The notes under the pieces were generated by a model. It was given only the letters and a program-made list of their open reading frames with translations. It searched no databases and was not told where the DNA came from. A program made the position numbers and the translations under genes. A stretch of DNA of 64,000 nt from a virus. Taxonomy: Duplodnaviria > Caudoviricetes. This document shows, one piece after another, positions 36,788-55,970 of the stretch; position 1 is the stretch's first letter; the number at the start of each line of letters is the position of its first letter. The stretch spans positions 8,939 through 72,938 of IMG/VR virus record IMGVR_UViG_3300032274_000001. One strand, 5' to 3'.

Positions 36788-39559
36788 GTGGCCCGGCGTG
36801 AGGTGACGGCTAGTCGCGGCAAGCAGCCGTCGCGCGCACGGAACAAGTCCGCCCGGGGTAAGACCTCCACCCAAAAGGCAGGCCCCCAGACCGAGCAGCG
36901 CGCCGGAGACGTCCAGGGCTTGTCGGCCTTCGACAAGTTCAACCGGGCTCTAGACCTGCTCGGCCAGGGGCGGATGTCTGACCTTCAGGATCCGTACCTG
37001 CAGCTCAGCTCCTGGTACTCAGGAGTCCAGGTCATCAGCATGAGCATGCAGCGGGCACCGTTCGTGCCTTGGATGACGGGTGAGCGCTCTGGGGAGATCA
37101 CGTCGGGGCCCCTGTACGACCTGACTAAGCAGCCGAACACGGCGCAAACGTGGGATCAATTCCTCGGCCAGGCGATCGTGCACATGCACGGGCCCAAGGG
37201 CGCGGCCTACATGCACAAGAAGGGCAAGCGGAGCATTGGCTTGCCCGAGGAGATCCGGCTCATCGACCCGCAGAGGGTCCATGCTGCAGTGTCCAGCGAG
37301 GACACGATGGAGCTCCGCGGTTGGAACATCGACCGGGGCCCCAACGGGGAGCCGCCACAGGAGATCCGTGGCGACGACAAAGACGACATCATCCCGATCT
37401 ACCTAGCCGCACACCCTACGGACCCGTACCAGTCGGTAAGCCCGCAGATTCCCGGCCAGCTAGACCTAGACACCGAGCGCATGGCGGCCCTGTACACGGC
37501 GTCTACGCTGGCCTCTGGGGGTAGTCCGGGGTTGCTGTTCTCGTTCCTGGGGGACTCGGATTGGGACGAGGAGCAGGGCCGGGCCGTCGAAGAGAAGCTG
37601 AAACAGAAGTACGGCACCCACGACGGCTACCGGATGGCTGCTGTGTCGGGGGATTGGAAGGTCCAGAACCTGGGCATGCGGCCCCGGGACATGGAGTTCA
37701 CGCAGTGGCGGAGTGCGATCATCAACATCATTGCTCGCCTTCTCGGCATCACGCCGTTGCTGCTGGCCCACTACGAGGGCGCCACGGGCCTCAGTGATGC
37801 CGGTTTGCAGGTCCAGGAGCGAGTCAACTACCGGCAGAAGTTCATTCCACTCGGCTCCAAGATTGCGAACGCTTGGCAGAAGGGCATCGTCAATCCGTAC
37901 AACCCAGCCATCGAGGTCTTGTTCGACTTCTCCCAGATCGAAGCCTTGCAGGAGGATTTCGCGGCGAAGCTGGTAGCCGCGCAGGCGTTGGCTCAGCTTC
38001 TGATCCCGCTGGAGCAGATCGACTCGCTACTGGACCTCGGGCTGGACTTGTCGAAGATCCCTTGGGCGAGTGATGTCCTGGTGCCCTTCGGCCAGGTGCC
38101 GGCGAGTCAGATGGGCGTTTCAACGGAGGACGCGGCAGAAGGGGACGCGCTGCCCACCGAGCCGCTTGCCGAGACCAGCGACAGCGGAGCGGGTGCCCTC
38201 AATGGTGCCCAGGCCAAGGAAGCGTTGAACATCATCTCCCAGGTCAGGCTGGGCAGTATCCCGAAGACGACAGCCGTGGCCCTCCTGGTGGCCATGAATG
38301 TTCCCCCGCAATTGGCGAGTCAGATGCTTGCCGATGTAAAGCTCGCGCCACCGGAGCAGATCGCCGACGAGGCTGCAGCGGCTAAGGGCGAGCGGGCCGT
38401 TGAGGGCGACCCGGACGAAGAAGTAGACCCGGCCTCGGTGGTGGAAACGCACTCCGAGGACGACGAGAACGCCCCGGACGTGGTGATTGAGGGACGTACC
38501 CTCAAGCTCTCCATCAAGCGCCGCAGGAAGGCCGCGAAGGACTACCAGAAGGCCCGAGAGAAGGCGGTCACGCGGGTCAAGGGCAAGGTCAAGCGCGCCA
38601 TGATGACGCATCGCTCAGCGGTGCTCCGGGCGTTCAATGAACAGGCAGGCACCAGCCTCCGAGCCATCATGCGGGCCCAGAATCCCGACATGACGGAGCT
38701 GCAGCTACATGAGCTGACCCCGGAAGAGGTGGTGGCGCGTGCACCGACCGAGCTCGAAGAGGCAGAGATCCAGGCCATTCTGGATGCCGTCGACCGGGGA
38801 TTGATCGCGGCGACGATCTCACCAGCGGTCGAGCAGGCCATGCGGCAAGCGGTTGCCGCCGGGGAGCCTACGCTCGAAGCCCTCGGCGTGGCCAAGGCGG
38901 ACCTCACCGAGTACCGCAAGCGGCTCCCTGCGCTGACGAAGAAGTACGCGGCGCAGACCCTGCAGAAGGGCCCCGCCACGGCAGCCGAGGAGATGGTCAA
39001 GCGGGCCGTCCGCAAGACGATCGTTGACGCCATCGACGAGGGCAAGACGGTAGCCCAGACGGCCAAGTCGTTGCGGGCGATGTTCAACGAGACGATGAGC
39101 GACGGCCGAGCCCGGGTGATTGCCCAGACCGAGACGGGCATCGCTATGAACACGGCCCAGTTCGAGCACTACAGCGCCAACGGGGTCGAGGAGATCGAGT
39201 GGCGGGCCCGTATGATTCGCACCCGCGAGTCCCACGAGGCCATGCACGGGACGCGGGCCAAGATCGGCGAGGAGTTCGGCAACGGCCTCAAGTACCCGCA
39301 GGAGCCGGGGGCACCGGCCGCCGAGGTGGTGGAGTGTCACTGCGGAGTGGTCCCGGTGGCGCGGTCGCGGTCGGAGGTGCAGGTCGAGGCGGCAGCGCTC
39401 GAGGAGATAGAAGGCCGCGGGGTTCAGGAGCGGGACGGGTCGTTTTACGTCATGACCGACGACGGTGTGGCGTTGAGTCGAGCCTTCGAGACTAGAGAGC
39501 AGGCACAGCAGCGCTTTGCAGCCATGGAGAGCTTCAGGCGCGAGGGGGTAGGGGCATGA
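36788..39559 (+). CDS. Portal protein fused to MuF (gpF-like) minor head domain
   Basis: HK97-like portal core (DMEFTQWR...ARLLGI, FDFSQIEALQED) and C-terminal RARVIAQTET...RTRESH...CHC. Confidence 0.9.
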   Translation: MARREVTASRGKQPSRARNKSARGKTSTQKAGPQTEQRAGDVQGLSAFDKFNRALDLLGQGRMSDLQDPYLQLSSWYSGVQVISMSMQRAPFVPWMTGERSGEITSGPLYDLTKQPNTAQTWDQFLGQAIVHMHGPKGAAYMHKKGKRSIGLPEEIRLIDPQRVHAAVSSEDTMELRGWNIDRGPNGEPPQEIRGDDKDDIIPIYLAAHPTDPYQSVSPQIPGQLDLDTERMAALYTASTLASGGSPGLLFSFLGDSDWDEEQGRAVEEKLKQKYGTHDGYRMAAVSGDWKVQNLGMRPRDMEFTQWRSAIINIIARLLGITPLLLAHYEGATGLSDAGLQVQERVNYRQKFIPLGSKIANAWQKGIVNPYNPAIEVLFDFSQIEALQEDFAAKLVAAQALAQLLIPLEQIDSLLDLGLDLSKIPWASDVLVPFGQVPASQMGVSTEDAAEGDALPTEPLAETSDSGAGALNGAQAKEALNIISQVRLGSIPKTTAVALLVAMNVPPQLASQMLADVKLAPPEQIADEAAAAKGERAVEGDPDEEVDPASVVETHSEDDENAPDVVIEGRTLKLSIKRRRKAAKDYQKAREKAVTRVKGKVKRAMMTHRSAVLRAFNEQAGTSLRAIMRAQNPDMTELQLHELTPEEVVARAPTELEEAEIQAILDAVDRGLIAATISPAVEQAMRQAVAAGEPTLEALGVAKADLTEYRKRLPALTKKYAAQTLQKGPATAAEEMVKRAVRKTIVDAIDEGKTVAQTAKSLRAMFNETMSDGRARVIAQTETGIAMNTAQFEHYSANGVEEIEWRARMIRTRESHEAMHGTRAKIGEEFGNGLKYPQEPGAPAAEVVECHCGVVPVARSRSEVQVEAAALEEIEGRGVQERDGSFYVMTDDGVALSRAFETREQAQQRFAAMESFRREGVGA

Positions 39560-41619
39560 CCATGAGAACGCTACGAAGCGTTGACGACTGGTACGGCGGA
39601 CAGAACCCGCTCGACGCATTGGAGTTCCAGCGGGCAACCAAAAAGGGCCGCGTCGGTACCAACAACGAGATTCTGAAGCGAGGGTCGGCGATCGAGGCAG
39701 AGGCCGGCCGGTTCCAGATGAACGAGCGTGTGCTGGTTCGCTCTGGGCTCAACGTCGTCCAGGCGCGCCAGGCGCCCCAGGACCTATACGGCTCCGACGC
39801 CAACGTGGTGCGGTTCTGCGTCGTGTCGGGCGAGGATGCCCGAGACAACAAGGGGCTGGACGTCCAGGGCGGCAACACGCAGGCGTTCCGGGCGAACCCG
39901 GTGGTGCCCTGGTGCCACATCTACAACGAGCCGCCCGTGGGCCGGGGCCGGTACATCGCGACCATGAAGCGTGCCGGCGGGCCGTACGAGCTGTGGTCGG
40001 ACGTCGAATTCATCCCCGAGGACATCTACCCGTTCGGGGCAGTCATCGGCCGCATGTACAAGGGCGGTTGGCTGAGGGGCATCTCGCTGGGCTGGATCCC
40101 GACCAAGGTCAGGGAGGTTCGGAGCCGAGGCGGGAAGCTTCAGAAGGTCGTGTCCGAGCAGTGGGAGATGGTCGAGGAGTCGGCCTGCGCGATCCCGATT
40201 GATCGGTGGGGGCTGGCCGAGATGGCCTCGGCGGGCATCTTCGGCGAGGGGACAAAGCGGTCCCACTTGGCTGACAACTTCGTCGAGACCTACCGGCGCA
40301 CCGTTGGCGACAACGGCGACTGGACGGGTTGGAGCGAGGGCGTGGCCTACGAGATCTCGGGCAAGGATGTCCGTATGGTTCCCGACTGCAGCGAGGGAGC
40401 TGCCACCGAGGATGGCCTGAGCGACGAGGCAAGGGCCGTCCTGACCGAGGCCCGCGAGAGCATTACCCGGGCCTACGAGCCCGAGGCCCAGCGCGAGCTC
40501 GTGGAGGAGCACCACATCGACCCCGAGAGCAACCTCGGCGACCTGAAGGCCCTGTCCGTCGAGGCGGCTGCGGTCCGGAGTCTAGGTGCGGGAGAGGATG
40601 ACCCCGTAGAAGAGCCCGAGGCTCGCTCTGAGCCGACCGGGGAGGATCCCGAGGGGGAAGCCCTGGAGGTGGAGCAGGCGAGCGGAGAGCGGCTCCCAGG
40701 GGAGTTGCTACGCGGCGAGGTCTCGGACGAGTTGGACCTGGTCTATGACCGGCTGCGGGGTGCGGTGGTGGCAGCCATGGACGCCACGGAGCGTCTGTAC
40801 TGGCTGGGCAACTCGGCGTACTGGCAGGGCAGGAGCCTGGCCGAGACGCTGGGGTTCCCTCCGGAGCAGCGGGAGCGGGTATTGGCCGAGACCCGGCAGC
40901 TGGGCGCCGATGACCCGGAGAGCCCCGACGCATTGCACAACCTGATCGCTCGGCAGACGAAGCGACTGCGGAGCTCGGCGAATCTGATCCTGGAGGCCAC
41001 GGTAGCGGCCGAGGATGCCATGGACGTTGGCGATTCGGTGGGCGAGACGGCGTCGGCCGAGGTTGGCGCCTCGGTGGTCGAAGAGGCGGGCCTTACCGAG
41101 GCGTTGTCGATCATGGTCCATCGGATGGCCGATGAGGGTGTCGAGATCCGGGCAGGCAAGAAGATCTCCAAGAGTCGGCGGGAGAAGATCGGCGGCCTGC
41201 TCAAGCAGCTTCAGAGCGTCACCAAGGGCCTGAAGCAGGTACTCGGGGAGGGCGAGAGGGAGGCGAAGGTTGAGGACGAGCCGAAGGCTGAGACGGCGTC
41301 GCTGGGGCCGAAGCTTGCCGAGCTCCGTAGCCTGGCCGGCCTGGGAGACCGGGAAGGTGTCGTCGCTGCGGATCCGGTCGAGGCGCCAGCTACCCGGTCG
41401 CGCGTGCTCGAGATCCTGGACAAGGCCAAGGCCAAGGCCAAGCCCCTCGACGGCACGGACCCGAAGCCGGAGAGCCGAACCAATGGCGAACTCCCGGGGG
41501 TGAGGGTGCCGAAGACAGAGGGCAAGAAGGTCACGGCTGAATTCGCCCGAGACCTGGCTGCGGGGATCGACAAGCTCCGCGCCAAGGCGGGCCTTGACCA
41601 GGGCGCGGGAGCCGAGTAG
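39556..41619 (+). CDS. Prohead protease with long acidic scaffold-like extension
   Basis: FRANPVVPWCH...PPVG, GISLGW, EESAC.IP motifs. Confidence 0.82.
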   Translation: MTMRTLRSVDDWYGGQNPLDALEFQRATKKGRVGTNNEILKRGSAIEAEAGRFQMNERVLVRSGLNVVQARQAPQDLYGSDANVVRFCVVSGEDARDNKGLDVQGGNTQAFRANPVVPWCHIYNEPPVGRGRYIATMKRAGGPYELWSDVEFIPEDIYPFGAVIGRMYKGGWLRGISLGWIPTKVREVRSRGGKLQKVVSEQWEMVEESACAIPIDRWGLAEMASAGIFGEGTKRSHLADNFVETYRRTVGDNGDWTGWSEGVAYEISGKDVRMVPDCSEGAATEDGLSDEARAVLTEARESITRAYEPEAQRELVEEHHIDPESNLGDLKALSVEAAAVRSLGAGEDDPVEEPEARSEPTGEDPEGEALEVEQASGERLPGELLRGEVSDELDLVYDRLRGAVVAAMDATERLYWLGNSAYWQGRSLAETLGFPPEQRERVLAETRQLGADDPESPDALHNLIARQTKRLRSSANLILEATVAAEDAMDVGDSVGETASAEVGASVVEEAGLTEALSIMVHRMADEGVEIRAGKKISKSRREKIGGLLKQLQSVTKGLKQVLGEGEREAKVEDEPKAETASLGPKLAELRSLAGLGDREGVVAADPVEAPATRSRVLEILDKAKAKAKPLDGTDPKPESRTNGELPGVRVPKTEGKKVTAEFARDLAAGIDKLRAKAGLDQGAGAE

Positions 41620-41651
41620 GTCCGGATGCACACTCACACGTAATCGAGGGT

Positions 41652-41757
41652 GGGTTGTAAGACCCCAACTGCGGGGAGAGGGCCAGTCCATAGGGGGCTG
41701 GCCTTTTCCTTTGGTGGTTGACCGCTCGCGAGGGGGCGAGTAGTCTTCTCCGCAGTT
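41652..41757 (+). ncRNA. Candidate structured RNA in the capsid leader
   Basis: GNRA hairpin 41652-41665; 12-bp stem 41667-41678/41746-41757 enclosing two hairpins. Confidence 0.45.
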
Positions 41758-41956
41758 CGTACCAGTACCGAACGCTCGGCACTGCCGGCGTGGCCTCTCA
41801 TGGGTAGGCGCACGCAAACGGCCAGCGCACACGGGTGAATCGGCTGAGGCGACGTCCTGGTTGGTCCTTCTTTTGGACTGCCATCGTTGACGGCCCGGCT
41901 TAACCCGTAACGCGCACTCAGGGGGATTCCCCTTGGGGCGAGAAAGCACACCACCC

Positions 41957-43333
41957 ATGGCGAACGAAGCCCACATTCGTGAAGTCTCCGAGAAGGAGCT
42001 CCACTCGCTGATCGAGGTTGCTGAGCACTCCCTCGACGAGAACAAGAACAGCATCGAGAAGCTGCAGCGCGCCCTCGATGGGGACCCCGACAAGAAGGAC
42101 GACGCCGGCAATCCGCTCGAGCCAGGCATGCGTGCCGAGCTTACGGCGATGGCCGAGGAGCTGGCGGACACGCGCCAGTGCATGACCGACGTCCTCGAGG
42201 AGTTCAAAAAGGTAGACGAGCGCACCGACCGGTCCGACAAGGTCTGGCGTGCCTACGAGGATGCGGACCCGCGGGGCTTCCACACCAAGACGTACCGGGC
42301 CCTTGCCGACGTCTACAACGCCTCCTACGACTCGTGGAAGAAGGACAACTACGCGAGCTCGCCTGAGGGGCACACCCGTGCGGCGGACCAGTCGTCCACC
42401 ACGGACACCCAGGGCGGTATCCTGGTCCCGACAGCGACGTGGGAAAACGTCGCGTACATCATCGGCCAGAAGTCGTTTCTGCGCGCGTACGGCACGCAGG
42501 TGCCACTGCCGACCGACGACCTGAAGGTCCCGTACCTGCCCGAGATCCCGACCATGTACGTGCAGGGCACCCAGGGGGTCGAGCCCACGCACGGGTCGCT
42601 GATCTTCGACGACACCCAGATGCTCTCCGCGAAGACCTACCTGGGCATCAACGTCATCCCGAACCAGCTCGTCCAGGATGCCGTCCGGATCTGGGCGACG
42701 TTCTGGGCGCGTGTCTTCACCGACGCCATGGCGCTCAAGGAGAACAAGGGCATGTTCTCCGAGAAGCCCACCGACGCCAACGGCGCATTCTCTGGCGTCA
42801 TCCAGGAGGTCGAGGGCGCGACCACGAACAAGCATGAGTACTACCTCGGCGGGTCCAGCACGTCTGGGAGCACCCACTTCTCGACGCTCAGCTACGACGA
42901 TCTGGTCGAGATCCAGAGCCTTCCCAACGAGAACAGCGCGGACGGCAACCGGTGGTTCATGCACCGCAACGTCGGCAAGTACATCCGGAAGCTGAAGACC
43001 ACCGACGGCTTCCCGCTGATCGGCCCGATGACGCAGGGCATGGCGTCGATGAATCCGAAGCCGGACACGCAGGGCCCGCGCTCGACTCCGCTGCTGAGCG
43101 ACCCGATGCACGAGACGTCGGCGATGCCTGGCACGAATGCGGTGTCGAAGTCGGTGATCGTGTACGGGAATCCCGCCTACACCTTCTGGGGCGAGCGGGC
43201 TCCGATGTCGATCGAGTTCTCGAAGGAGAGCCAGTTCAAGGACTACGCGACCGTCATGCGCGTGGCGGAGCGGATCGCGCAGAAGACCATTGCGGTCGAT
43301 GCGTATTCGATCGGGAGGGTCGCGGCGAGCTAA
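41957..43333 (+). CDS. Major capsid protein (HK97 fold)
   Basis: Coiled-coil delta domain, QGGILVPT, spine helix, GN...GER..MSI. Confidence 0.93.
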   Translation: MANEAHIREVSEKELHSLIEVAEHSLDENKNSIEKLQRALDGDPDKKDDAGNPLEPGMRAELTAMAEELADTRQCMTDVLEEFKKVDERTDRSDKVWRAYEDADPRGFHTKTYRALADVYNASYDSWKKDNYASSPEGHTRAADQSSTTDTQGGILVPTATWENVAYIIGQKSFLRAYGTQVPLPTDDLKVPYLPEIPTMYVQGTQGVEPTHGSLIFDDTQMLSAKTYLGINVIPNQLVQDAVRIWATFWARVFTDAMALKENKGMFSEKPTDANGAFSGVIQEVEGATTNKHEYYLGGSSTSGSTHFSTLSYDDLVEIQSLPNENSADGNRWFMHRNVGKYIRKLKTTDGFPLIGPMTQGMASMNPKPDTQGPRSTPLLSDPMHETSAMPGTNAVSKSVIVYGNPAYTFWGERAPMSIEFSKESQFKDYATVMRVAERIAQKTIAVDAYSIGRVAAS

Positions 43334-43408
43334 CCGAATCCCGCATGAGGAGCGACGATCCGACCACCGAAGTCAGCCGGCGGGGTTGGGGAGCTGGGAT
43401 GGGCTGAC

Positions 43409-43442
43409 CAGCGGGGGTCTTGCTACGGCGGGGCCCCCGTTG
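43409..43442 (+). terminator. 15-bp hairpin with cUACGg loop after the capsid gene
   Basis: CAGCGGGGGTCTTGC-TACG-GCGGGGCCCCCGTTG. Confidence 0.55.
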
Positions 43443-43508
43443 CTATTTGGGACGTGGCCGTGCGGGGGCTGTGCAGCGGCCCGACATGGGCAGCAGCGAC
43501 GTCGGACT

Positions 43509-43545
43509 CGGGGGAGTCTCCTTTACTTGGGGGCTCCCCCGTTTT
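43509..43545 (+). terminator. Intrinsic terminator candidate
   Basis: 13-bp stem 43509-43521/43529-43541 followed by TTTT. Confidence 0.65.
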
Positions 43546-43563
43546 CGTGGTAGAGGGCCGGGT

Positions 43564-43851
43564 ATGAAGCGGAGAGGGTTTCTGGGGGCGCTGGCTGGGT
43601 TGTTCGCCGCGCCTTTGGTGAAGGTGGCCCATGCGCCGATCGCGACGGCGTCGCCCGTGGTGCTGGCTGCTGAGCCAATCGCGAAGGAATTGTCCGCCGA
43701 CGCGGTTCAGTCCCTTGAGGGACTGTTTGCCCAGGTGTTTACGGACGCCATGGAGCTTGCAGAGAACAGGATGATCTTTGGTCATCACGCAGAGGTCCGG
43801 CCGGTTGCGGTCTATGAGCCACCTCCGGGCTACGAGCATCGGTTCGGATAG
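43564..43851 (+). CDS. Tat-signal mini-protein containing a capsid spine-helix copy
   Basis: MKRRGFLGALAG; DAV...AQVFTDAMELAEN matches MCP DAV...ARVFTDAMALKEN. Confidence 0.7.
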   Translation: MKRRGFLGALAGLFAAPLVKVAHAPIATASPVVLAAEPIAKELSADAVQSLEGLFAQVFTDAMELAENRMIFGHHAEVRPVAVYEPPPGYEHRFG

Positions 43852-43862
43852 GAGACAGATCG

Positions 43863-44258
43863 ATGGCAACGACAACGGTTGAGTATCTGAGGGACTACGA
43901 GGGCCATGCCGTAGGGGACCGGGAGGGCTTGGACGTCCACGACGCCGCCGGGCTGGTCATGGCTGGGGTGGTCCGAGATGTGAACGGGAAGTGCGCGAAG
44001 CGGGGTCTGGTGCCGGCGACGCTGACGGTGGTGGACGAAGCGTCCCCGGTCGATGACAGGGTGTTCGACACCCTGGAGCAACGCCCCTTGCCGAGCACGT
44101 CGGACATCGAGCGCGACGCCGATGGCTTCCCCATCGGGCGGAGGTTCAAGCCCAAGGATCCGGACTCGGAGGTGGTCGCCGGGGCGTTCGCTGCCACCGA
44201 TGCGGGGCTGAAGCCCTTGGCCGAGGTTCCGAAGATCGGAGATGACGGCGATGAGTGA
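43863..44258 (+). CDS. Small head-associated protein candidate
   Basis: V.YLRDYEGHAVGD...AAGLVMAG; position after the MCP. Confidence 0.55.
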   Translation: MATTTVEYLRDYEGHAVGDREGLDVHDAAGLVMAGVVRDVNGKCAKRGLVPATLTVVDEASPVDDRVFDTLEQRPLPSTSDIERDADGFPIGRRFKPKDPDSEVVAGAFAATDAGLKPLAEVPKIGDDGDE

Positions 44259-44688
44259 CGCGGCTAGAGAGATGCAGTGGTGGGAGCACGTGAACTGGAA
44301 CGCTCCGCACTGGGTCAAGATCACCGTCCGGGACGTCTCTACCGTGGTGGGGAACGTGGCCAAGGGCTCGGTGGTGCGGATGCCTGGCACGGAGGCAAGG
44401 CGCTTGTGTCAGTGGGCCAACCCTCCGCTTGGGGAGCTCGCAGACGAGCTGGCAGAGCGCTGGCTGATCCTGACCCCTACGGCGGCCTCGTTTAGCCCCG
44501 AGACGGTGCGGGAGATGGAGGCTGGGCCAACCCCTGGCCCGGCCATCGTGCTCCCAGAGGCGAAGCGAGAGCCCTTGGCGGAGGTGATTGCCCGGTGTGC
44601 CGCGTCTGGTGTGGGGCACTCTTTGAAGCAGTCGCGGAGGATCGCGAAGCAGCGAGCCACGCGGGAAGCGAAGCGACTGGCTCCCTGA
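44251..44688 (+). CDS. Small head-associated protein candidate
   Basis: VKITV...VAKGSVVRMPGTEARRL. Confidence 0.5.
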   Translation: MSDAAREMQWWEHVNWNAPHWVKITVRDVSTVVGNVAKGSVVRMPGTEARRLCQWANPPLGELADELAERWLILTPTAASFSPETVREMEAGPTPGPAIVLPEAKREPLAEVIARCAASGVGHSLKQSRRIAKQRATREAKRLAP

Positions 44689-44720
44689 GGGGGACCGGTC
44701 TTGGCCTGGAGGGAGACGAG

Positions 44721-44999
44721 ATGAGAAGGCAACGAGATGGGGAGATGGCGAGGCGTACTCCCGGTCAGCGAGTAGCCCGTTGGGTCCGGGTCGCCGTCGC
44801 TACCCTCAGGGGTAAGGTAGACGGGGGGCCCGAGGGCCTGCGTGTCCCGTGGTGGTGCCGATTCCCTGCTGGTTGGCACCTGAACGTGGAGCGGAGCGGC
44901 TTCGACGGGTGTAGCCACGAGGGCCGTTGTCTGGACTGTGGCCGGCGTGTCTTGCTGGATTCTCAGGGTAACTGGTTCGAGATGGAGGAGAGATCATGA
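44721..44999 (+). CDS. Hypothetical protein
   Basis: Coupled; C/H motif. Confidence 0.5.
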   Translation: MRRQRDGEMARRTPGQRVARWVRVAVATLRGKVDGGPEGLRVPWWCRFPAGWHLNVERSGFDGCSHEGRCLDCGRRVLLDSQGNWFEMEERS

Positions 45000-45358
45000 A
45001 GCGACGCTCACTGGTACAGGCTCTAGCGGCTCTCCCTGGGCTCCTGGCGGCATTTCGGTCGGCGTCCGGGGCAGAGGAGAGGGGAAGCCTGATCGTCTTG
45101 GGTGGCCCGTTGCACGCTTCGGTGATGGTGCATGATGGCTTTGAGGGCTGGTACCAGCAGCTTCCGTGCGGGGATCACTGTTCGCGCATGGTGGAATGGC
45201 GGAACCTCGGTGATGGAATGATCAAGGCCCGCAGTCCAGAGGACGTGCCATGCCTGCGCGCGTGGGTAGGGAAGACCCCGACCATCCTTGGCATCGACCC
45301 CGCGTATCCGGGGGCAGAGGAATCGGCTCACTGGACGGGCCAGTGGTCCCCCATGTGA
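44996..45358 (+). CDS. Small protein with Tat-like signal
   Basis: MKRRSLVQALAALPGLLAAF. Confidence 0.55.
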   Translation: MKRRSLVQALAALPGLLAAFRSASGAEERGSLIVLGGPLHASVMVHDGFEGWYQQLPCGDHCSRMVEWRNLGDGMIKARSPEDVPCLRAWVGKTPTILGIDPAYPGAEESAHWTGQWSPM

Positions 45359-45414
45359 CCCCGCCGCAAAACCTGACCGAAATGCATACCACGTTGGTAG
45401 GGAGGAACCTGGAG

Positions 45415-45606
45415 ATGAGTGACGTAGAGTACCGACTGAAGTTCCGGATTGGCGATGCGGCAGTTTACAAGGGGGAGATCACTGGCCGCGTAGATGCGAT
45501 CCGGATCGAAGCCGAGTCCGTGAGGGTCCGGCTGGTGATAGACGAGATCGGGACGCAGCTGTGGGCTCTAGAGTCGCTGGTCGACTTCGCCCCCGATCCC
45601 GCCTGA
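45415..45606 (+). CDS. SH3-like small protein
   Basis: KFRIGDAAVY...GRVDAI. Confidence 0.45.
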   Translation: MSDVEYRLKFRIGDAAVYKGEITGRVDAIRIEAESVRVRLVIDEIGTQLWALESLVDFAPDPA

Positions 45607-45632
45607 CCCCGGGGGGTGATCGCATCGAAAGC

Positions 45633-46769
45633 GTGAATGGGCATTCTTTCTCCCGGCGACGGAAGCTCACCTGGGCAGTCAACCGCGAGATCCTCCAAGG
45701 CAATGCGTTCGGCTATACAGCGGCCAGCCGAAACCTGATGGATGCGCTCTCGCGACGATCAGACGTGGATCTCGCAGACGAAGGCGGAGAGGACGACTGG
45801 GTCGTCCACTTCTGTCACCCGAAGAACTTCCACCCGGAGAACTACCCGGGCAGGCGCAACGCCATCTTCACCATGTACGAGATGCACCCGCCGCCGCCGT
45901 ACTACAGCCAGAGTTTCAAGAAGGCGGACCTGGTGGTCACGCCCTCGACGTACTGCGCCAAGCTGTTCAAGCCCCTGGTGGGGAAGGTCCCGCTGGCGGT
46001 CTCGCGGCTTGGCTACGACTCGGAGCGGTTCAGCTTCCACGAGGGCAGGCAGCCCCCCGAAGAGGGAGTAGAGCCGTTCCGGTGGCTGTGGCTGGGCGCA
46101 GCGAACGAGCGCAAGGGCTACAAGATTCTGATGGTGGCTTGGGCGTTGGATCCGAAGCCCGACCACGGCAAGACCAACGCCGGTCTAGTGGGCGCGGATG
46201 GCAAGCCGATGTTCTCGACCCTGGAGCCGCACCCGGACCCGGCATTCAAGGACAGGCGAGACGTGTGTCTGCTGATGAAGACGACCCGCTGGCAGGACGG
46301 GGGCGACGAGCGGACGTTCAGCGTGGACAACGTCTGCTACGACGAGCGCCGGCTATCCCGGGACGACCTGGCGGGTCTCTACGACGGGGCCCATGCGTTC
46401 GTGTTTCCCAGCTACGGCGAAGGCTGGGGATTGACGGCACTCGAGGCGCTGGCGACGGGGCTGCCCGTAGTGACGATCGACTATTCGGGCATGCGGGACT
46501 TCCTCGACGAGAAGCACGGGGCTGCGTTCTGCGGGTACTCGGAGGTGGAGTTGGACGTCGACCGGGACGAGGACGGGTTTGGCAAGGCGTTTGCGATGCG
46601 GCCAGACGTCTGGGATCTTCGGGCGAAGATGAACGACGTGATGCGCAATTACCCTGCGTATCTGAAGCGAGCGAAACGTGGAGCTCGGCGAGCGGCCGAG
46701 CAATTCACCTGGGACCATGCGGCCGAGAGTCTGGTCGATGTGCTGGGCCGGGCTGAAGGGGGGCGATGA
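45633..46769 (+). CDS. Glycosyltransferase family 4 (GT-B)
   Basis: FTMYE, VVTPS, GEGWGLTALEALATGLP. Confidence 0.9.
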   Translation: MNGHSFSRRRKLTWAVNREILQGNAFGYTAASRNLMDALSRRSDVDLADEGGEDDWVVHFCHPKNFHPENYPGRRNAIFTMYEMHPPPPYYSQSFKKADLVVTPSTYCAKLFKPLVGKVPLAVSRLGYDSERFSFHEGRQPPEEGVEPFRWLWLGAANERKGYKILMVAWALDPKPDHGKTNAGLVGADGKPMFSTLEPHPDPAFKDRRDVCLLMKTTRWQDGGDERTFSVDNVCYDERRLSRDDLAGLYDGAHAFVFPSYGEGWGLTALEALATGLPVVTIDYSGMRDFLDEKHGAAFCGYSEVELDVDRDEDGFGKAFAMRPDVWDLRAKMNDVMRNYPAYLKRAKRGARRAAEQFTWDHAAESLVDVLGRAEGGR

Positions 46770-47086
46770 AGATGGGCAAGATGGCGGAGTGGGCGACGAA
46801 GCGGTTGCTGTTGGATTTGCAGAACCAGGGCATGGTGGTGGAGCGGGAGGCGGGCTCGGATGCTCTGATCCTGAAGGAGACGGCCGAGAGTGAGGAGACG
46901 TACCGGGTGACGCTGGGCGTTGAGCTGATGCAAGCGGAGACGGAGGAAGCGGACGATGCAGGAAGCGTTGATGCAGGCAGAGCAGATGGGCCGGCTGGAG
47001 GCGATGGTGGAGGAGCAGCGGAAGCTTCACCAGCGGCACCGGCAGGGCAAGGCGGGGACCCAGAAGACGAGACGCCGGCGCCGTAA
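46766..47086 (+). CDS. Hypothetical protein
   Basis: Coupled; low-complexity tail. Confidence 0.4.
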   Translation: MKMGKMAEWATKRLLLDLQNQGMVVEREAGSDALILKETAESEETYRVTLGVELMQAETEEADDAGSVDAGRADGPAGGDGGGAAEASPAAPAGQGGDPEDETPAP

Positions 47087-47198
47087 GGCTGCCCGCGTAG
47101 CTCGGAAAGTGTAGGTGGGTTGAAACGGCTGGGGCACTTGCGGCATAGTCGCGGAGGCGCCCCAGCCGGGCGCCCAATGGCCCGGAAGGAGACGAGAG

Positions 47199-47384
47199 AT
47201 GGACGTTACGAGGGATGCTGTTCGTAGGGCGGTTGCCACGCTTTTCGTGAATCGCAGCGGGGACACGGCGGAGCGGTTGGTGCTGGTCAACGACACGAAG
47301 GGTCAGACTGACCTGGGTGGTTTGAGTATGCCCGCAGTGGTCGGGCGGCTTTGTGAGCAGCTTGGAATCGGGAGCGAAGATTGA
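47199..47384 (+). CDS. Hypothetical phage protein
   Basis: AGGAG RBS, ERLVL...DLGG pattern. Confidence 0.5.
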   Translation: MDVTRDAVRRAVATLFVNRSGDTAERLVLVNDTKGQTDLGGLSMPAVVGRLCEQLGIGSED

Positions 47385-48541
47385 CCCCCGGCGGCCTGTC
47401 GGCTCCTGACCCGTTCGAGGGGAAGACCCCCCCGCCTGGCCCGCTGACGGTCCACGTCCTGGGCGCTGGTGGCCCAGCGGGTGTGAACTTCATCCACTGC
47501 CTCAAGCACGGGGTACTGAAGGACCGGCCCATCCGCGTTGTGGCCTACGACGACCAGCCACACCATCTGGGGCTTGTAGCCGAAGCGGACGAGTATGGGT
47601 CGCCCGGCCAGATGGACTTGGAAGTGCAGTCTCTTGGGGGTGGTCGTCATCTGATCGTGGCGCAGCCTGACGCGCTGGTAGCGAAGCTGGCGAAACGTGG
47701 GCCCTGGTACCCGGAGGACATGGTTGCTCTCCCCGGCCCGAACACCATCGCGCTCGCTCAAGACAAGGCATCCACGGCTTTGGTCTGGCACGAGCGGCAG
47801 GGCAGGAGGTTCTCTGTCGTACCCTGCTCGGAGAGCGCCGTAGAGGCCCGCAGGACTGCGCTGGAGGAGGTCGGGTACCCGATGTGGCTCCGGGCCCGGA
47901 CGGGGGCTGGGGCCCGTCTGGCGAGCCTGGCGGAGCACCGTGGCCAAGCCGACCTGTGGTGCCGGTACGTTGGCATGCGCTTCGGAGAGAGCGACCTGCT
48001 TGCCGAGACGTACCTGCCCGGCCGGGACTACGGCGTGACGCTGGTCTACTGGCACGGTCAGCTGGTGGGTCAGATGGCTCGAGAGCGGTTGGAGTACCTG
48101 TACCCGCAGCATGCGGTGTCGGGCCGGACGGGGACGCCCACGGTGGCGCGTCTGATCTGCGACCGGGGGATTCTGTGGCGTGCCCAGATGGCTGTGGACC
48201 AGCTCTGCTCGGCCGCAGGAGAGGCGCCCCATGGGGTGTTCTGTGTCGACCTCCGGGAGGACAAGGAGGGAATAGCGCAGCCCACGGAGATCAATGCCGG
48301 GCGGTTCTTCACGACGTCGCACGTTGGCTTGCTGCCCTGGGGGCAGGGGGTGGACCTCGTGGGCTTGTACGTGGGGCTCGCGTTTGGGCTGAGGGAGCCG
48401 CCGAACAATCCGCTAGGGCTGCTGCCCCAGGACGACGGGACGCTAGTGCTGCGGCACATCGATGCGGGGACGCATTGGATCCGGCCCCAGGACATGACCG
48501 AGGAGATGAGCGAATGGCTGAAGACACTCCCGACGCCGTAG
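47381..48541 (+). CDS. ATP-grasp ligase
   Basis: GAGG..G N-terminus, GYPMWLRARTGAGAR, ETYLPG, VDLRED...EINAGRF. Confidence 0.85.
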   Translation: MTPGGLSAPDPFEGKTPPPGPLTVHVLGAGGPAGVNFIHCLKHGVLKDRPIRVVAYDDQPHHLGLVAEADEYGSPGQMDLEVQSLGGGRHLIVAQPDALVAKLAKRGPWYPEDMVALPGPNTIALAQDKASTALVWHERQGRRFSVVPCSESAVEARRTALEEVGYPMWLRARTGAGARLASLAEHRGQADLWCRYVGMRFGESDLLAETYLPGRDYGVTLVYWHGQLVGQMARERLEYLYPQHAVSGRTGTPTVARLICDRGILWRAQMAVDQLCSAAGEAPHGVFCVDLREDKEGIAQPTEINAGRFFTTSHVGLLPWGQGVDLVGLYVGLAFGLREPPNNPLGLLPQDDGTLVLRHIDAGTHWIRPQDMTEEMSEWLKTLPTP

Positions 48542-48549
48542 GGTTTCCT

Positions 48550-48786
48550 GTGGACGCCTTGAGCAAGCACTGCATAGTTCTAGGGCTGAGGGCGCGTGAC
48601 ATGATTACCGGCTTCGAGGGGGTCGCGACGGGCCGACTGGAGAACTACCACGGGCCGCCCGAGATTCGGATACAGCCGGAGTTCTGCGGCGACGACGGCA
48701 AGCCCGCCGAGGCAGTGTGGTTCGATGAGGGACGGGTCGAGTTAGTCCCGGGTGAGGCCAGGGTAGGGTTTAGGTGGACGCCGTGA
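48550..48786 (+). CDS. Small phage protein
   Basis: D.ITGFEGVATG...WFDEGRV. Confidence 0.6.
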   Translation: MDALSKHCIVLGLRARDMITGFEGVATGRLENYHGPPEIRIQPEFCGDDGKPAEAVWFDEGRVELVPGEARVGFRWTP

Positions 48787-49457
48787 GCCGCCTGACAGTG
48801 GGCTGCGTAGTCACGTCCTGGAACTACGGGATGTTCATCGACGAGGCCCTGACGTCCCTTGCGGGCCAAACGCGCTCGGCTGACGAGGTGGTCGTTGCGG
48901 ATGATTGCTCGACGGATAGCAGCGTAAGCCGGCTCAAGGGGTGGGCGCACATGCCGTGGCGCATCGCGCAGCGGAGCGAACGGCTGGGATTCGTCGAGAA
49001 TGCCAACCGGGCGATAGCCGCCCTGGGCACGGATCTCGCGTTCGTTCTCTCCGCCGATGACTGGCTAGAGCCTGGGTTCATCGAGAAGCACGCGGCGGCC
49101 TTGGAGAACGCCGAGGCGGACGTTGCGCTCGCCTACTGCACCATGGCCTACCGTTGCACCGAGCCCGGCCCTAGGATGGACCTCGACGGCCACGTGATTG
49201 GGTTCCAGAGGTGGAGCGACGCCATCATGGGAGGGAACTTCGTGAACGGCTCGGCGATGTTCCGGCGCGAGGTATTCTTGGGGATCGGGGGATTCCCGGA
49301 GCGGGACCGCGAGGAGGACCATGCGTTGTGGGTGGAGATGGCTCGGGCCGGGTACCGCGGCGTGCAGGTCGGGGGCAGGGAGGTGATGCTCAACTACCGC
49401 CAGCACGGGAGAGGGCATCGTAACTACGGTGACGACGAACGGAGGAGGGCTACGTGA
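48783..49457 (+). CDS. Glycosyltransferase family 2
   Basis: VVTSWNYG, VADDCSTD, SADD, EED. Confidence 0.9.
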   Translation: MSRLTVGCVVTSWNYGMFIDEALTSLAGQTRSADEVVVADDCSTDSSVSRLKGWAHMPWRIAQRSERLGFVENANRAIAALGTDLAFVLSADDWLEPGFIEKHAAALENAEADVALAYCTMAYRCTEPGPRMDLDGHVIGFQRWSDAIMGGNFVNGSAMFRREVFLGIGGFPERDREEDHALWVEMARAGYRGVQVGGREVMLNYRQHGRGHRNYGDDERRRAT

Positions 49458-49627
49458 CGAATGAAGCGATTCAGATGCTGCAAGGCGCAGCGGAAGAAGT
49501 AGACAAGCACGCAAGTGCATTGCTCAAGTTGGGGCTTCCAGTGGAGCTAGTGCGAGCAATCCGCGGGTACGCAGAGAAGTTGACGGCAGACATTCCCCCC
49601 GATGATTTAGCCGAAGCGGGCTGACCC

Positions 49628-50428
49628 ATGGCGATCGGCATAGTCATCCCCGTCTACAACAACTGGCACCTGACGAAGGCGTGCCTGGAGTCGATCGACG
49701 CAGCCGTCGGCTGCCCTAGCGATCGCCCGCTCGTGGTTACGGTGAACAACGGGTCTACGGATGCAACGGCGACACAGCTGGCCGCGCGATGTTCGCCATT
49801 CGAGATCGGGGTGGAGAACGACACGAACCTGGGGTTCGCGAAGGCGTGCAACGAGGGTGCGAGGCATGCCCTAGTGAACGGCTGTGAAACCGTCGTCCTC
49901 CTGAACAACGACACCGAGGTTTACCCCGGAGCGCTGGAGGCTTTGGCGGGTGCGGCCCAAGAGTACGGCATTGCGGGGGGCTTCCTCCTGTACCCGGACC
50001 GGCGGACGATCCAGCACGCCGGCATGGTGGGGGAGCCGCTGGTGCATCTCTACCGCCACGTCGATGCTCGGAAGTGCCCACCGAGCTGGAGAGCCAAGCC
50101 CTTGCAGTGCGTGACGGGTGCGGCGATGGCCATCAAGGCCGACCTCTGGCGCGATTTGGGCGGCTTGGATGAGGGCTACGTCAACGGATACGAGGACGTC
50201 GATCTGTGTTTCCGGGCCCGTGTCGAGCACGGTGCCGAGGTGTGGTTCGAGCCCGAGGCTGGGTTCATTCACCACGAGGGTCGGACGGAGGGTCGGTTTG
50301 TGAAGGAAGTGCAGAACGCTGGGCGGTTCTACGGACGGTGGGGGCACGTGATCCGAGCGGATGCTCGGGAGGTGATCGAGGCCGACAATCAGAATCATCC
50401 AGTCGAGGCGCCGGGGTGGCTGCGTTGA
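49628..50428 (+). CDS. Glycosyltransferase family 2
   Basis: IVIPVYNN, LLNNDT, VTGAAM, GGLDEGY..GYEDVDLC. Confidence 0.92.
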   Translation: MAIGIVIPVYNNWHLTKACLESIDAAVGCPSDRPLVVTVNNGSTDATATQLAARCSPFEIGVENDTNLGFAKACNEGARHALVNGCETVVLLNNDTEVYPGALEALAGAAQEYGIAGGFLLYPDRRTIQHAGMVGEPLVHLYRHVDARKCPPSWRAKPLQCVTGAAMAIKADLWRDLGGLDEGYVNGYEDVDLCFRARVEHGAEVWFEPEAGFIHHEGRTEGRFVKEVQNAGRFYGRWGHVIRADAREVIEADNQNHPVEAPGWLR

Positions 50429-52623: not shown

Positions 52624-54036
52624 ATGTCGATCATCACCCGGCCCGGCAAGATTATGGCAGTAGCCTTGGCGGCCTTGGTGGGATCTGCGGGCTCCGCCCT
52701 GGCACTCGACCCCGACGACCTGTCGATCGAGAACCCAGACGGCACGGAGAACATCTCGTTCAAGTACAACGCCGCCTCTGGCGATCTGGGCCTGGCCTCG
52801 GACGAGTGTGCTTTCCAGGCCAACGGAATCATCTGCGAGGGGTCGACCGCCGATGCCAATGAGACGCGGCTGGTGTTCCCCGCCGATCCGGCCGCAGAGC
52901 GCACGATCACGTTCCCGGACGCGACCGGCACGGTCCTCCTGAGTGAGCAGCAGGATGCGGGCACGGACGTCACCGCCGACCTCGAGGAGGAGGCCCACGC
53001 CAGTGAGCACGCCTCGGCGTTCATCGTCGCCTCGGGCGAGACGCTGGTGTTCAAGGACACCGACACCCTGGCGGGCAACCCGGCGCTGGGCTCGGAAGAG
53101 TGCGTGTTCTCCAACGACGGCACGGGCGGTATCCTGATTTGCGAGGGTGCGACCGCAGACACCAGCGAAGGCTTGCTGGCCTGGAACCCGACCAGCGACC
53201 AGACCCATACGATCCCCGACGCGAGTTCGGACACGTTCGTGCTGTTGGCAGCGACCCAGACGCTGACGAACAAGACGCTGACGACGCCCACCATTGGCGA
53301 CTTCAGCAACTCCACGCACGACCACTCGAACAACGCCGGTGGCGGGCAGGTAGACATCGACGACCTGAGCAACCAGGCCACGTGGGCCACGGCGGCGACG
53401 AAGATCACGGCCAACCTGACCATTTCGGGCGTAGAGGTGGACTACGAGGGCGGTGCTTCGGAGGGCTTCCCCCGGCTGGCGCAATCGACTACGCCGCCCA
53501 GCGCGGAGTGTGACGAGTCGGGCGAGGCTGGCCGGCTGTACTTCGACACCGATGCGGACACGGACGGCTCGGTGTTCGTCTGTACGGGCACCGGGGGGTG
53601 GAAGGACATCGACGACGACGGGGGCGGCGTGGCAATCAACCCCGACCGGTCTGTCGATTCGGAGATGCGGGTCAAGCTTGCCGCATTGGGCAAGATCTAC
53701 ATGAGCCTGTCGGGCAAGCTCTGCTCGACGGAGGCGGACTGCAACTCGCCCTTCCGGACGGGCACACTGAACAACCTGGACTGCTTGTCCACGGTGGCGC
53801 AGACGGTTGACGAGGTGAAGGTCACGCTAGGCACGGGGACATGCACCACGGCTAGCTTCACCTACGACGGGAGCGAGGCGTCGCTGCCCGCGGCGGCCAA
53901 CACGATGGCCAACGGCTCGGACGCATCCAAGACGGGTGGGGCGAACACATGCGCGCGGATCGAGATCGAGAACACCGGCGCATCCGGCATGGCGAACAAG
54001 GGCTACATCAACTGCTCCATCAAGCAGACGGCGTAA
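52624..54036 (+). CDS. Fibre-like protein with signal peptide
   Basis: AVALAALVGSAGSALA signal; two ICEG.TAD.E...P...T..PDA repeats; TQTLTNKTLT. Confidence 0.7.
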   Translation: MSIITRPGKIMAVALAALVGSAGSALALDPDDLSIENPDGTENISFKYNAASGDLGLASDECAFQANGIICEGSTADANETRLVFPADPAAERTITFPDATGTVLLSEQQDAGTDVTADLEEEAHASEHASAFIVASGETLVFKDTDTLAGNPALGSEECVFSNDGTGGILICEGATADTSEGLLAWNPTSDQTHTIPDASSDTFVLLAATQTLTNKTLTTPTIGDFSNSTHDHSNNAGGGQVDIDDLSNQATWATAATKITANLTISGVEVDYEGGASEGFPRLAQSTTPPSAECDESGEAGRLYFDTDADTDGSVFVCTGTGGWKDIDDDGGGVAINPDRSVDSEMRVKLAALGKIYMSLSGKLCSTEADCNSPFRTGTLNNLDCLSTVAQTVDEVKVTLGTGTCTTASFTYDGSEASLPAAANTMANGSDASKTGGANTCARIEIENTGASGMANKGYINCSIKQTA

Positions 54037-55970
54037 TGCGACAGGGAAGGCGCATCTGGGCCGGGGCGCTGGGGCTGATTGCCTTGGCGGTTGCGGCCCC
54101 GGTCTGGGGGGTAGAGACGGGCCAGGCCGGCTACCCAGACTACTACGACCCCCGGGCCTACGGGGCGGTCTGCGATGGCTCTACGGACGACCGTGCGGCC
54201 TTCCAGGCGGCTATCGACGAGGCGACGACCGCAGGCGGGACGGTCTACTGTCCGGACAACCACACGTGTGTGATCGGCGGAGTCGGGCTGGTGATGAAGG
54301 ACAACGTGCGGCTGGTCGGCACGCACTCGTGCACGCTCCAGGCGGCCACGGGGATCTCTGCGGAGATCCTGAACGGTTCGAGCCTCGCCGACATCACCGT
54401 GCAAGGGGTCAGGTTCGACATCAGCGGCGAGGACCAAGGCGCGATGGACCTGGCCGGGACGAACATGTGGGTCCTCAACAACTACGTGAGTGGCCTCGAC
54501 GCCGCTTCGGGGTCTGGCATTGCCAGCGTAGACATTGATTGCACGAGCCAGGCCAGGAAGGCGTGCATCGTTCGTGGCAACACCATCGTCGGCACGAACA
54601 CCTCGGCACGGACAGACATCGGGCTGCTCTACGAGGGTGGGGGCACGGTCAACGGCTACGCCCAAGAGATCTCCGCGAACGAGATCATTCGGACCGGTGG
54701 CGACGGGATCCAGGTGCAGGGGATTGGAACTGTCACGTCGTCTCTACGCATCCACAACAACACGATCGAAGACGGCCATGGCTACGGAATTGCGCTGACG
54801 GGGTTGACCGTCACGGATTCGGTGGCCTCGCAGTCGATCATCTCCGACAACAACATCCACACGGTGGGGACAGCCTGCATTCTGACCGAGCACTCCAACG
54901 TCACGATCGCGAACAACACGTGCCATCTCGGCCCGACCTGGGGCGTGATTGCACGCAACAGTGACGACAGCTCCAACCTGGCTGGGGTGCTGGTGCAGGA
55001 CAACTACCTCGCGGGCCTGTGGACGTGGTTCGATTCGCAGGGGCATTGCTCACCGACGAACTTGAGCGAGGTCTGCGACGTCACGGCGGATTGCTCCGAC
55101 GTCGGCGATACCTGCATCAACTACACGAAGCTGGACCACAACTCGTACGAGGGAAACGTGGCTTCGGGCGGTGTGATTTGTGAGAACTGCTCGGGGACGA
55201 CGATCAACGACAACACGCTGCTTTGCGCGATCGCCGCGACGGACAGCTCGACCGACCCTCGCGGCTGCATCGAGTTCCACAACCCCGACAGCACCGTGGA
55301 CTGGGGGAACTCGGTCGACGGCAACCAGATCAACTCGCAGCAGGCTACGGCGGCGACCGACGGGACGTGCATTCGCTTCGAGGATCCCGGTGGCGGAGGC
55401 TTCCAGGGGATCACGATTTCGGACACGCACTGCGGACGCGGCAGCAACAGCGCTGGATTCGAGGATACGCAGTATTGCGTCGATGTTCAGGACTCGCCGA
55501 GCACGTGGGATCGAGTCTCGTTCATTGGCCTCGACTGCTCGGAAGCCCAGACCGGCTCGGCTTGGAACAACGACCCGGGCGGCACCCGGATCTGCGGGTC
55601 GGAAGGCTTCGACGTGGATGCGTGCACCGATCGCCATGCGTGCCGCACCATGGAGGTCTCCACGACCGGCACCGAGTATTTCATGATGGTCGCCCCGGAT
55701 CCGATGACGATCACAGGCGTGTCGTGCGTGTGTGTCGAGGGGGGGACGTGCGGAGGGACGCTGGCTACGTTCGCCCTGGAAGACGCGGCAGACAACGCGA
55801 TGACGATCTCGGGGACGCTCACGTGCGGAACTGGGACCACTGCGGCGAATTGGAACGCAGTCACGGCGGGGAACTCGCTGGTCAAGGGTGAGACCTTCCG
55901 GACTCAGGCGACGACGACCCCCACGACTGCTGAAGAATACGCCGTGTGCGTGGAGTACGTGCTGTGGTGA
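54036..55970 (+). CDS. Pectate-lyase-like right-handed beta-helix (tailspike/depolymerase-like) with signal peptide
   Basis: YGAVCDGSTDDRAAFQAAID, repeated I..N.I rungs; N-terminus WAGALGLIALAVAAPVWG. Confidence 0.85.
   Translation: MRQGRRIWAGALGLIALAVAAPVWGVETGQAGYPDYYDPRAYGAVCDGSTDDRAAFQAAIDEATTAGGTVYCPDNHTCVIGGVGLVMKDNVRLVGTHSCTLQAATGISAEILNGSSLADITVQGVRFDISGEDQGAMDLAGTNMWVLNNYVSGLDAASGSGIASVDIDCTSQARKACIVRGNTIVGTNTSARTDIGLLYEGGGTVNGYAQEISANEIIRTGGDGIQVQGIGTVTSSLRIHNNTIEDGHGYGIALTGLTVTDSVASQSIISDNNIHTVGTACILTEHSNVTIANNTCHLGPTWGVIARNSDDSSNLAGVLVQDNYLAGLWTWFDSQGHCSPTNLSEVCDVTADCSDVGDTCINYTKLDHNSYEGNVASGGVICENCSGTTINDNTLLCAIAATDSSTDPRGCIEFHNPDSTVDWGNSVDGNQINSQQATAATDGTCIRFEDPGGGGFQGITISDTHCGRGSNSAGFEDTQYCVDVQDSPSTWDRVSFIGLDCSEAQTGSAWNNDPGGTRICGSEGFDVDACTDRHACRTMEVSTTGTEYFMMVAPDPMTITGVSCVCVEGGTCGGTLATFALEDAADNAMTISGTLTCGTGTTAANWNAVTAGNSLVKGETFRTQATTTPTTAEEYAVCVEYVLW

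Follow-up and report, generated by a model that had tools for sequence, protein, structure and literature searches.

Directly behind its HK97-type major capsid protein (MCP) gene, the phage genome analysed here carries a mini-gene of 95 codons whose sequence supports a reading as a chimera in which a Tat-type leader is joined to a helix derived from the MCP. We think that it is best explained as a real, lineage-specific accessory chimera that would act as a late, envelope-targeted mimic of a capsid helix, and we give this reading a probability of roughly 45%. Taken separately, it is probable that the mini-gene is a real chimeric gene, and any capsid-mimic function at all lies on the unlikely side. 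A single orphan of this kind is weak evidence on its own, too little to support a claim about function.

Among the phage molecules that bacterial immune sensors recognise, capsid proteins are some of the main ones, and capsid assembly relies on a few conserved contact surfaces. If functional, the mini-gene would represent a new kind of phage accessory protein, an export-tagged mimic of the phage's own shell, and its location signal is left unexplained by any published system. The facts added here are a gain on a terminal branch inside a late head operon, a copy that appears old or imported and not freshly duplicated, and a blind leader-based scan with controls that recovers the design beside two other capsid families.

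The mini-gene and its place in the head module

The source record is a linear IMG/VR sequence of 72.9 kb with a CheckV completeness of 84%, and the window (the whole 64-kb stretch of this record that was analysed, to which all coordinates refer unless a contig is named) has a G+C content of about 65%. Its head module runs from a portal-MuF fusion (36788-39559) and a 687-aa protein (39556-41619) to the MCP gene, which is followed by hairpins, the mini-gene and a 131-aa gene:

41933..43333, + strand: MCP gene, HK97 type (PF05065, E 2.5e-23; five relatives at 48-69% identity)
42650..42763, + strand: MCP residues 240-277, counterpart of the mini-gene segment (MCP alignment, hhalign and low-confidence helix model)
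about 43409..43443, + strand: first terminator-like hairpin after the MCP gene, stem of ~15 bp followed by CUAUUU (RNA fold)
43509..43551, + strand: second intrinsic-terminator-like hairpin (stem 43509-43541; 13 pairs, 10 of them G-C) and T run
43553..43557, + strand: Shine-Dalgarno-like motif GAGGG, 6 nt before the mini-gene ATG (sequence reading)
43564..43851, + strand: mini-gene P0001, 95 codons plus stop (ORF list and translation)
43564..43635, + strand: Tat-type leader, mini-gene residues 1-24 (motif reading and motif scan)
43672..43785, + strand: MCP-derived segment, residues 37-74, predicted to form a single long acidic helix
43786..43848, + strand: C-terminal tail, residues 75-95, HAEVRPVAVYEPPPGYEHRFG, without detectable relative
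43863..44258, + strand: next gene, 131 aa, MATTTVEYLRDY..., whose homologue is the first post-MCP gene in the related contigs L004, L005 and L006

The MCP open reading frame opens at TTG 41933 (466 aa), and the gene callers of other assemblies start it at ATG 41957 (458 aa). As the original prediction stated, the mini-gene is the first open reading frame after the capsid terminators, with two terminator-like hairpins separating it from the MCP gene. The RNA fold of positions 43334-43570 has a z-score of -2.6, and the second hairpin is conserved in the relative L004 (6432-6477); an Rfam search gave nothing significant (one match, E 0.91). Since no promoter-like site was found for the mini-gene, its expression would require transcription to read through the terminators. 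The next gene begins 12 nt behind the stop codon of the mini-gene, and its ribosome-binding site AGGAGA overlaps this codon. In reading order, the mini-protein consists of MKRRGFLGALAGLFAAPLVKVAHA, PIATASPVVLAAE, PIAKELSADAVQSLEGLFAQVFTDAMELAENRMIFGH and HAEVRPVAVYEPPPGYEHRFG.

An open frame by itself means little at 65% G+C, where an antisense ORF of 150 codons covers the same spot. The frame of the mini-gene has the best codon score of all six (0.248 per codon, the other five at -0.21 or lower), and among windows of real genes this score ranks at the 5th percentile, while it exceeds the 95th percentile of windows taken off frame; its GC3 is 0.73, compared with 0.75-0.90 in the long genes of the phage. 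Five other assemblies also contain a gene call here, four times with 95 aa and once with 83 aa from TTG 43600, a version that would be without the leader. Two alternative frames were considered and rejected: the antisense ORF scores as non-coding, and so does the upstream part of a longer, 143-codon version of the mini-gene starting at 43420.

The N terminus of the mini-protein (MKRRGFLGALAGLFAAP in the translation of the 95-aa frame) contains the twin-arginine motif K2-R3-R4-G5-F6-L7-G8 and is built like a Tat-type leader, with a short KRR n-region running into RR-G-F-L, an uncharged, Gly/Ala-rich h-region (GALAGLFAAPLV), the basic residue K20 and the A-x-A motif A22-H23-A24. Pro25 follows at +1 after AHA, and a proline directly after A-x-A disfavours cleavage by signal peptidase I; a second candidate cleavage site, A27-T28-A29 before S30, lies five residues further on. 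Leaders of this kind, defined in a motif scan by RR-x-F-L, an uncharged stretch of 12 residues or more and A-x-A, occurred at just 3 of the window's 2188 candidate starts and at 0.13 per 64 kb of Markov-random sequence, so that the Tat-like start claimed by the original prediction is not only present but also rare by chance. The Tat-signal profiles PF10518 and TIGR01409, which are short and insensitive, did not match (Pfam at E <= 1, NCBIfam at E <= 10), and this weakens the assignment without excluding it. Feature neighbours in the ESM Atlas include Tat-signal families at 0.77-0.79, which we treat as a lead only. Because the h-region has just 12 uncharged residues, a stable membrane anchor is unlikely.

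The middle part of the mini-protein points to the capsid. The identity of 16 of 34 positions to the MCP that was originally reported is correct, and BLASTP extends the match to 17 of 39 (mini-protein 34-72 against MCP 237-275, E 7e-7); the codons have diverged as claimed, with 10 of the 17 identical residues encoded differently. A six-frame search of the whole 72.9-kb genome found the MCP segment as the sole other match (E 2e-4), and hhalign against a six-member MCP profile aligned residues 37-74 to MCP 240-277 with 90.6% probability (E 1.3e-6). This stretch is the most conserved part of the MCPs of this clade in their alignment, and the core retained by the mini-protein, VFTDAM-L-EN, is invariant among them. 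Searches of Pfam, PHROGs and NCBIfam with the mini-protein gave nothing above cut-off. The NCBIfam model TIGR01554 (HK97 major capsid) touches residues 38-72 at E 0.12 and 11.4 bits against a cut-off of 27.5, there is no Pfam match, and the full fold is lacking; the mini-protein is a fragment of a capsid protein and not a member of the PF05065/TIGR01554 family.

AlphaFold2 on the mini-protein alone predicts a helix at residues 45-75 (pLDDT 82-90), and a model of the MCP, of low overall confidence (pLDDT 34), places a helix at 245-270. A sequence search of the PDB returned only a marginal capsid match that ends where the helix starts. It is thus likely but not proven that the copied MCP segment is the spine helix.

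Divergence, distribution and origin

The mini-gene and the MCP segment are identical at 62 of 117 nucleotides, and their 55 differences fall 14/16/25 on codon positions 1/2/3. When 55 changes are scattered at random over the MCP segment, at least 17 amino acid identities remain with a probability of 1e-4, or of 0.0024 when the counts per codon position are kept. More similarity has thus been retained than would be expected if a copy of the resident MCP gene had decayed neutrally, and the changes cluster by codon as expected under protein-level constraint.

This calculation takes the resident gene as the source, and a comparison across the clade complicates it. Against the MCP DNAs of five members of the clade, the window's own included, the mini-gene shows 55-60 nucleotide differences with 25-27 of 39 third positions changed, whereas the five differ among each other at only 8-17 third positions. 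The copy is roughly equidistant from all of them and so did not arise by recent duplication of the resident gene; it would be either old (which requires several losses), fast-evolving or imported from an unsampled phage of the clade. Much of the synonymous divergence and of the excess at third positions may therefore predate the mini-gene and stem from the donor's time as a working capsid gene. At the 22 substituted positions, neither hydropathy (r 0.31, P 0.08) nor BLOSUM similarity (P 0.16) is significantly conserved. Given this and the clade-wide equidistance, the original statement that the segment has been kept at protein level is not established, and the evidence for such retention is mixed.

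The five relatives of the MCP have 48-69% identity to it, and for four of them the surrounding DNA was compared (L004, L005, L006-L008 and L009-L011). None of these four carries the mini-gene, and tblastn of P0001 matches only their MCP genes. All four keep the order of portal-MuF, large protein, MCP, terminator, small genes and GT4 glycosyltransferase. In L004, the closest relative, the distance from the second terminator to the next gene is ~105 nt, compared with 310 nt in the window. Because the homologue of the 131-aa gene directly follows the MCP gene in L004, L005 and L006, the mini-gene is an insertion in front of this gene, and a single gain on the branch of this phage is the simplest history. 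No insertion boundaries could be located by aligning the intergenic regions of the relatives, which are too diverged.

Two features of these head modules deserve mention in their own right. The portal is fused to a MuF domain and accompanied by a protein of ~690 aa without family match, an arrangement conserved in L004-L011; and the GT4 glycosyltransferase gene (window 45561-46769) sits inside the structural operon, as it does in L004-L011.

Outside the relatives, phmmer of the mini-protein against 1.84 billion (1.84e9) representative proteins returned only itself and a spurious repeat protein (P0014, a 2012-aa S-layer/cadherin-like protein rejected as a homologue, with 13 weak repeat matches summed). 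A word-index search returned only the window's own 83-aa gene call, and IMG/VR pattern searches for the mini-protein came back empty. No short proteins sharing words with MCP 225-295 were found, and the databases hold no closer donor. No prophage relatives that would indicate the host were detected in 185,579 species genomes.

The mini-gene was found on five other contigs (L012-L016, each from a different sample accession or assembly: JGI 3300032277, JGI 3300032373, SRR9650782, ERZ27251224 and ERZ27251191), all 100% identical to the window over up to 12 kb (37564-49851). They represent the same genotype and so offer no polymorphism for a test of selection. With the gene absent from the four relatives and otherwise seen in identical copies only, retention in relatives under purifying selection was not found. 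The original prediction had named uniqueness to this genome, coupled with a lack of translation, as the mark of a decaying duplication; the first half of this applies, since the mini-gene is limited to one phage genotype and has no homologue among the 1.84e9 proteins.

Recurrence of the design beside other capsid genes

The original prediction had proposed to look for similar genes next to the MCPs of other phages, and such genes were indeed found. Scanning IMG/VR with two patterns that describe only the leader (MKRRxFLGA and RRxFLGALAA) gave 54 matching stretches, with 3 loci found by both and 51 distinct loci in all, and the part after each leader was compared with the rest of its own locus. 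Clear capsid matches were obtained for two of the scanned loci, L023 and L067:

L023, 3735-3989, + strand: mini-gene, 85 aa; residues 24-76 match residues 81-133 of the contig's own PF13252 capsid protein (E 2e-6)
L023, 7247-8365, + strand: capsid gene, PF13252 (N4-type)
L067, 961-1212, + strand: mini-gene, 84 aa, MNRRGFLGALAAFVTVPAAVVRLA...; tblastn match (E 7.7e-12) to residues 43-88 of the 431-aa protein
L067, 8590-9882, + strand: probable major head protein, 431 aa (phrog_14242, E 3.9e-4)

In the controls, which were clean, all 552 cross-locus pairs stayed below 30 bits, and of 320 small ORFs that had not been selected for a leader, only the L023 mini-gene itself matched a large ORF. The mini-gene of the window is of the same design, a small ORF with an RR leader and a significant local match to a capsid gene of the same genome. 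Like it, the L023 and L067 mini-genes encode proteins of 84-95 aa with a leader of the form M-K/N-R-R-x-F-L-G-A... and a copy of 45-55 residues of their own capsid protein; they show no sequence relation to it beyond the leader, and capsid family, copied segment and genomic position differ. As judged from these matches, the design recurs beside three unrelated capsid families (PF05065, PF13252 and phrog_14242). Each case seems short-lived: the L023 mini-gene has no IMG/VR relatives beyond the leader and is a singleton, as is that of L067. Our literature search brought up no description of Tat leaders joined to pieces of capsid proteins, and the design is unpublished as far as searched.

Most leader-bearing mini-proteins had no partner in the DNA examined, and searches of the whole records of L040, L033 and L022 likewise found none. 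For L034, a match of 17 residues to a probable terminase was discarded, since its 25 bits lie within the cross-locus background.

Several other genes with such leaders were observed along the way. The window itself contains a second Tat-like small gene (44996-45358, + strand, 120 aa, MKRRSLVQALAALPGLLAAFRSASG...), whose leader is identical at 14 of 27 positions to a 44-codon ORF of L004 (7959-8090, E 0.001) and whose C-terminal LGIDPAYPGAEES agrees at 11 of 13 positions with the C terminus of the 282-aa protein encoded upstream in L004 (7858-7896, E 0.03). These matches suggest that a rearrangement put the tail of a neighbour behind the leader; the product matches no other protein of its own genome. 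DNA alignment gave no clear homology that would point to a common origin of the leaders of the mini-gene, the gene at 44996 and the ORF at L004:7959. A tailspike or pectate-lyase-like ORF (54036-55970, + strand) accounts for one of the only three matches that the Tat-like motif scan gave in the window; within it, an ATG precedes the signal-like MRQGRRIWAGALGLIALAVAAPVWG, and an export signal on a tail protein would be unusual.

Elsewhere, the leader MKRRTFLGALGALFLPTVAVAKT marks a conserved family of phage proteins of 177-183 aa in six IMG/VR contigs (L018, L021, L027, L032, L038 and L039), the largest of 184 kb; their flanks yielded no partner. In L031, two neighbouring paralogues (2841, - strand, and 3923-4801, - strand) both start with Tat-like leaders (MKRREFLGATAAAPLA... 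and MDRRDFLKAGAALPLA...) and share an internal repeat (E 1e-7).

Possible functions and comparison with known systems

According to the reading that we prefer, the mini-gene would have been gained on the branch of this phage between the terminators of the capsid gene and the conserved next gene of the head module, as a product of three parts: a Tat-type leader of 24 residues, a diverged copy of ~38 residues of the MCP spine helix, and a tail of 21 residues. The helix copy would come from an MCP of this clade, though not recently from the resident gene. Through terminator read-through it would probably be expressed late, along with the head genes that follow, and less strongly than the MCP. By means of its leader, the product would be targeted to the cytoplasmic membrane or the Tat machinery, so that the helix may end up in the periplasm or close to the membrane. 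The acidic helix with its VFTDAM-L-EN core would mimic the capsid helix towards the normal binder of the latter, and it is the retention of this invariant core that points to mimicry. The partner could be the scaffold, a neighbouring capsid subunit or a host protein that recognises the capsid protein; the first two are candidates because the SPP1 scaffolding protein touches the spine helix at its amino end and also the N-terminal region (PMC6813328).

The strongest rival, unlikely in our judgement, is that the mini-gene is a recombination scar or proto-gene, young or decaying: part of a capsid gene and a leader-like start would have come to lie behind the terminators, with a frame still open and a product, if there is one, that has no selected function. 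Its restriction to one genotype and its absence from every sequenced relative speak for this, and so do the weak codon adaptation, the lack of significant constraint at substituted positions and the ease with which frames stay open at 65% G+C; the mini-genes of L023 and L067 are singletons as well, which suggests short lifetimes. A scar does not readily account for a full Tat-type leader at the first post-terminator ATG with a ribosome-binding site, a combination very unlikely by chance, nor for amino acid identity above the neutral-decay expectation. The copy is also too diverged from the clade MCPs for a fresh duplication, yet has kept its core motif, and the two-part design recurs beside unrelated capsid genes.

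This recurrence allows a broader version of the preferred reading, which we regard as doubtful: unrelated tailed phages may repeatedly build short-lived genes from a leader and a piece of their own MCP, and these would form a functional class of membrane- or Tat-targeted mimics that capture or carry off a partner recognising the capsid piece. The captured partner could be, for example, a host capsid sensor, removed by "hitch-hiking" through Tat, or the scaffold of the phage itself, and the window would hold the HK97-type example, located directly behind the capsid gene.

It is improbable that the mini-gene is an exported "moron" with a job in the envelope, such as superinfection exclusion or lysis timing, for which the capsid fragment merely served as helical raw material. 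A Tat-type leader with a small helical passenger, inserted between a terminator and the next gene, would suit this; other signal-like starts occur in the same phage at 44996 and 54036, and many IMG/VR phages have small leader ORFs without a detectable capsid piece. Against this reading, the retained residues exactly match the clade-invariant capsid core VFTDAM-L-EN, and capsid pieces were found twice more behind such leaders and never in 320 other small ORFs, which is unexpected if their origin is irrelevant.

The original prediction had put forward as hypotheses a membrane-tethered capsid mimic that decoys capsid-sensing defences, an assembly modulator or a membrane anchor for proheads. The decoy and prohead-anchor ideas fit poorly because the Tat-type leader would export the helix, unless it only tethers the product. 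Core phage proteins are common immune triggers, and what speaks for a decoy that soaks up or misdirects sensors of the CapRel, Lit or PifA type is that the mini-gene copies the best-conserved stretch of the capsid protein, an invariant feature of the kind that sensors target; judging from the position of the gene, it would also be made alongside the capsid protein. But known capsid sensors act in the cytoplasm, out of which the leader would take the helix, and they are activated by binding, so that a simple mimic should trigger and not block them. No anti-defence homology was found either, and we consider a decoy very improbable; it survives only in more elaborate forms, for example with a bound sensor carried out through Tat. 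Least credible of all is an assembly modulator or membrane tether whose leader docks while the helix stays in the cytoplasm and binds scaffold or capsid to tune or place proheads: the location in the head module, the SPP1 scaffold contacts (PMC6813328) and the copied pieces in the window and perhaps L023 and L067, being the spine helix or N-terminal regions, speak for it, but all sequenced relatives assemble heads without the mini-gene, and an uncharged h-region of 12 residues is too short for a stable anchor.

Compared with known systems, the leader resembles the Tat signals of small periplasmic proteins (PF10518, TIGR01409) in its R-R-x-F-L motif, its Gly/Ala-rich and moderately hydrophobic h-region, the basic residue, the A-x-A and the small passenger. 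Unlike typical Tat signals, it has no HMM match, a very short n-region (MK) and a proline after AHA, and unlike bacterial Tat substrates, the mini-gene is phage-encoded with a piece of a cytoplasmic structural protein as its passenger. This passenger is like an HK97-type MCP in its alignment to MCP 240-277 (and weakly to TIGR01554 positions 191-225) and in its predicted helicity, but it comprises only ~38 of roughly 280 fold residues. Because the A domain, the E-loop and the P-domain sheet are missing, the mini-protein cannot form a capsid subunit.

Proteins derived from or binding to the capsid are also encoded beside the main capsid gene in the cases of T4 gp24, SaPIbov5 Ccm and SaPI CpmB, the last being a scaffold competitor. 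Ccm is a homologue of the capsid protein that redirects the shape of the helper's capsid (PMC8569155). All three are whole folds or scaffold-like dimers, cytoplasmic and members of conserved families, whereas the mini-gene encodes a single helix with an export leader and is an orphan. Another parallel is the Gol peptide, a short piece of T4 gp23 that acts on its own in Lit/EF-Tu exclusion. It illustrates that even a small conserved stretch of a capsid protein can have a partner outside the capsid, but Gol is part of the capsid protein itself, a different segment and without a leader, and the mini-gene is a separate gene.

Phage morons and ORFans insert between a terminator and the next gene. 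Like a moron, the mini-gene is small and confined to one lineage, has been inserted into a late operon, has a ribosome-binding site of its own and is missing from the relatives; unlike morons, it has no detected promoter of its own, and its content goes back to the adjacent structural gene.
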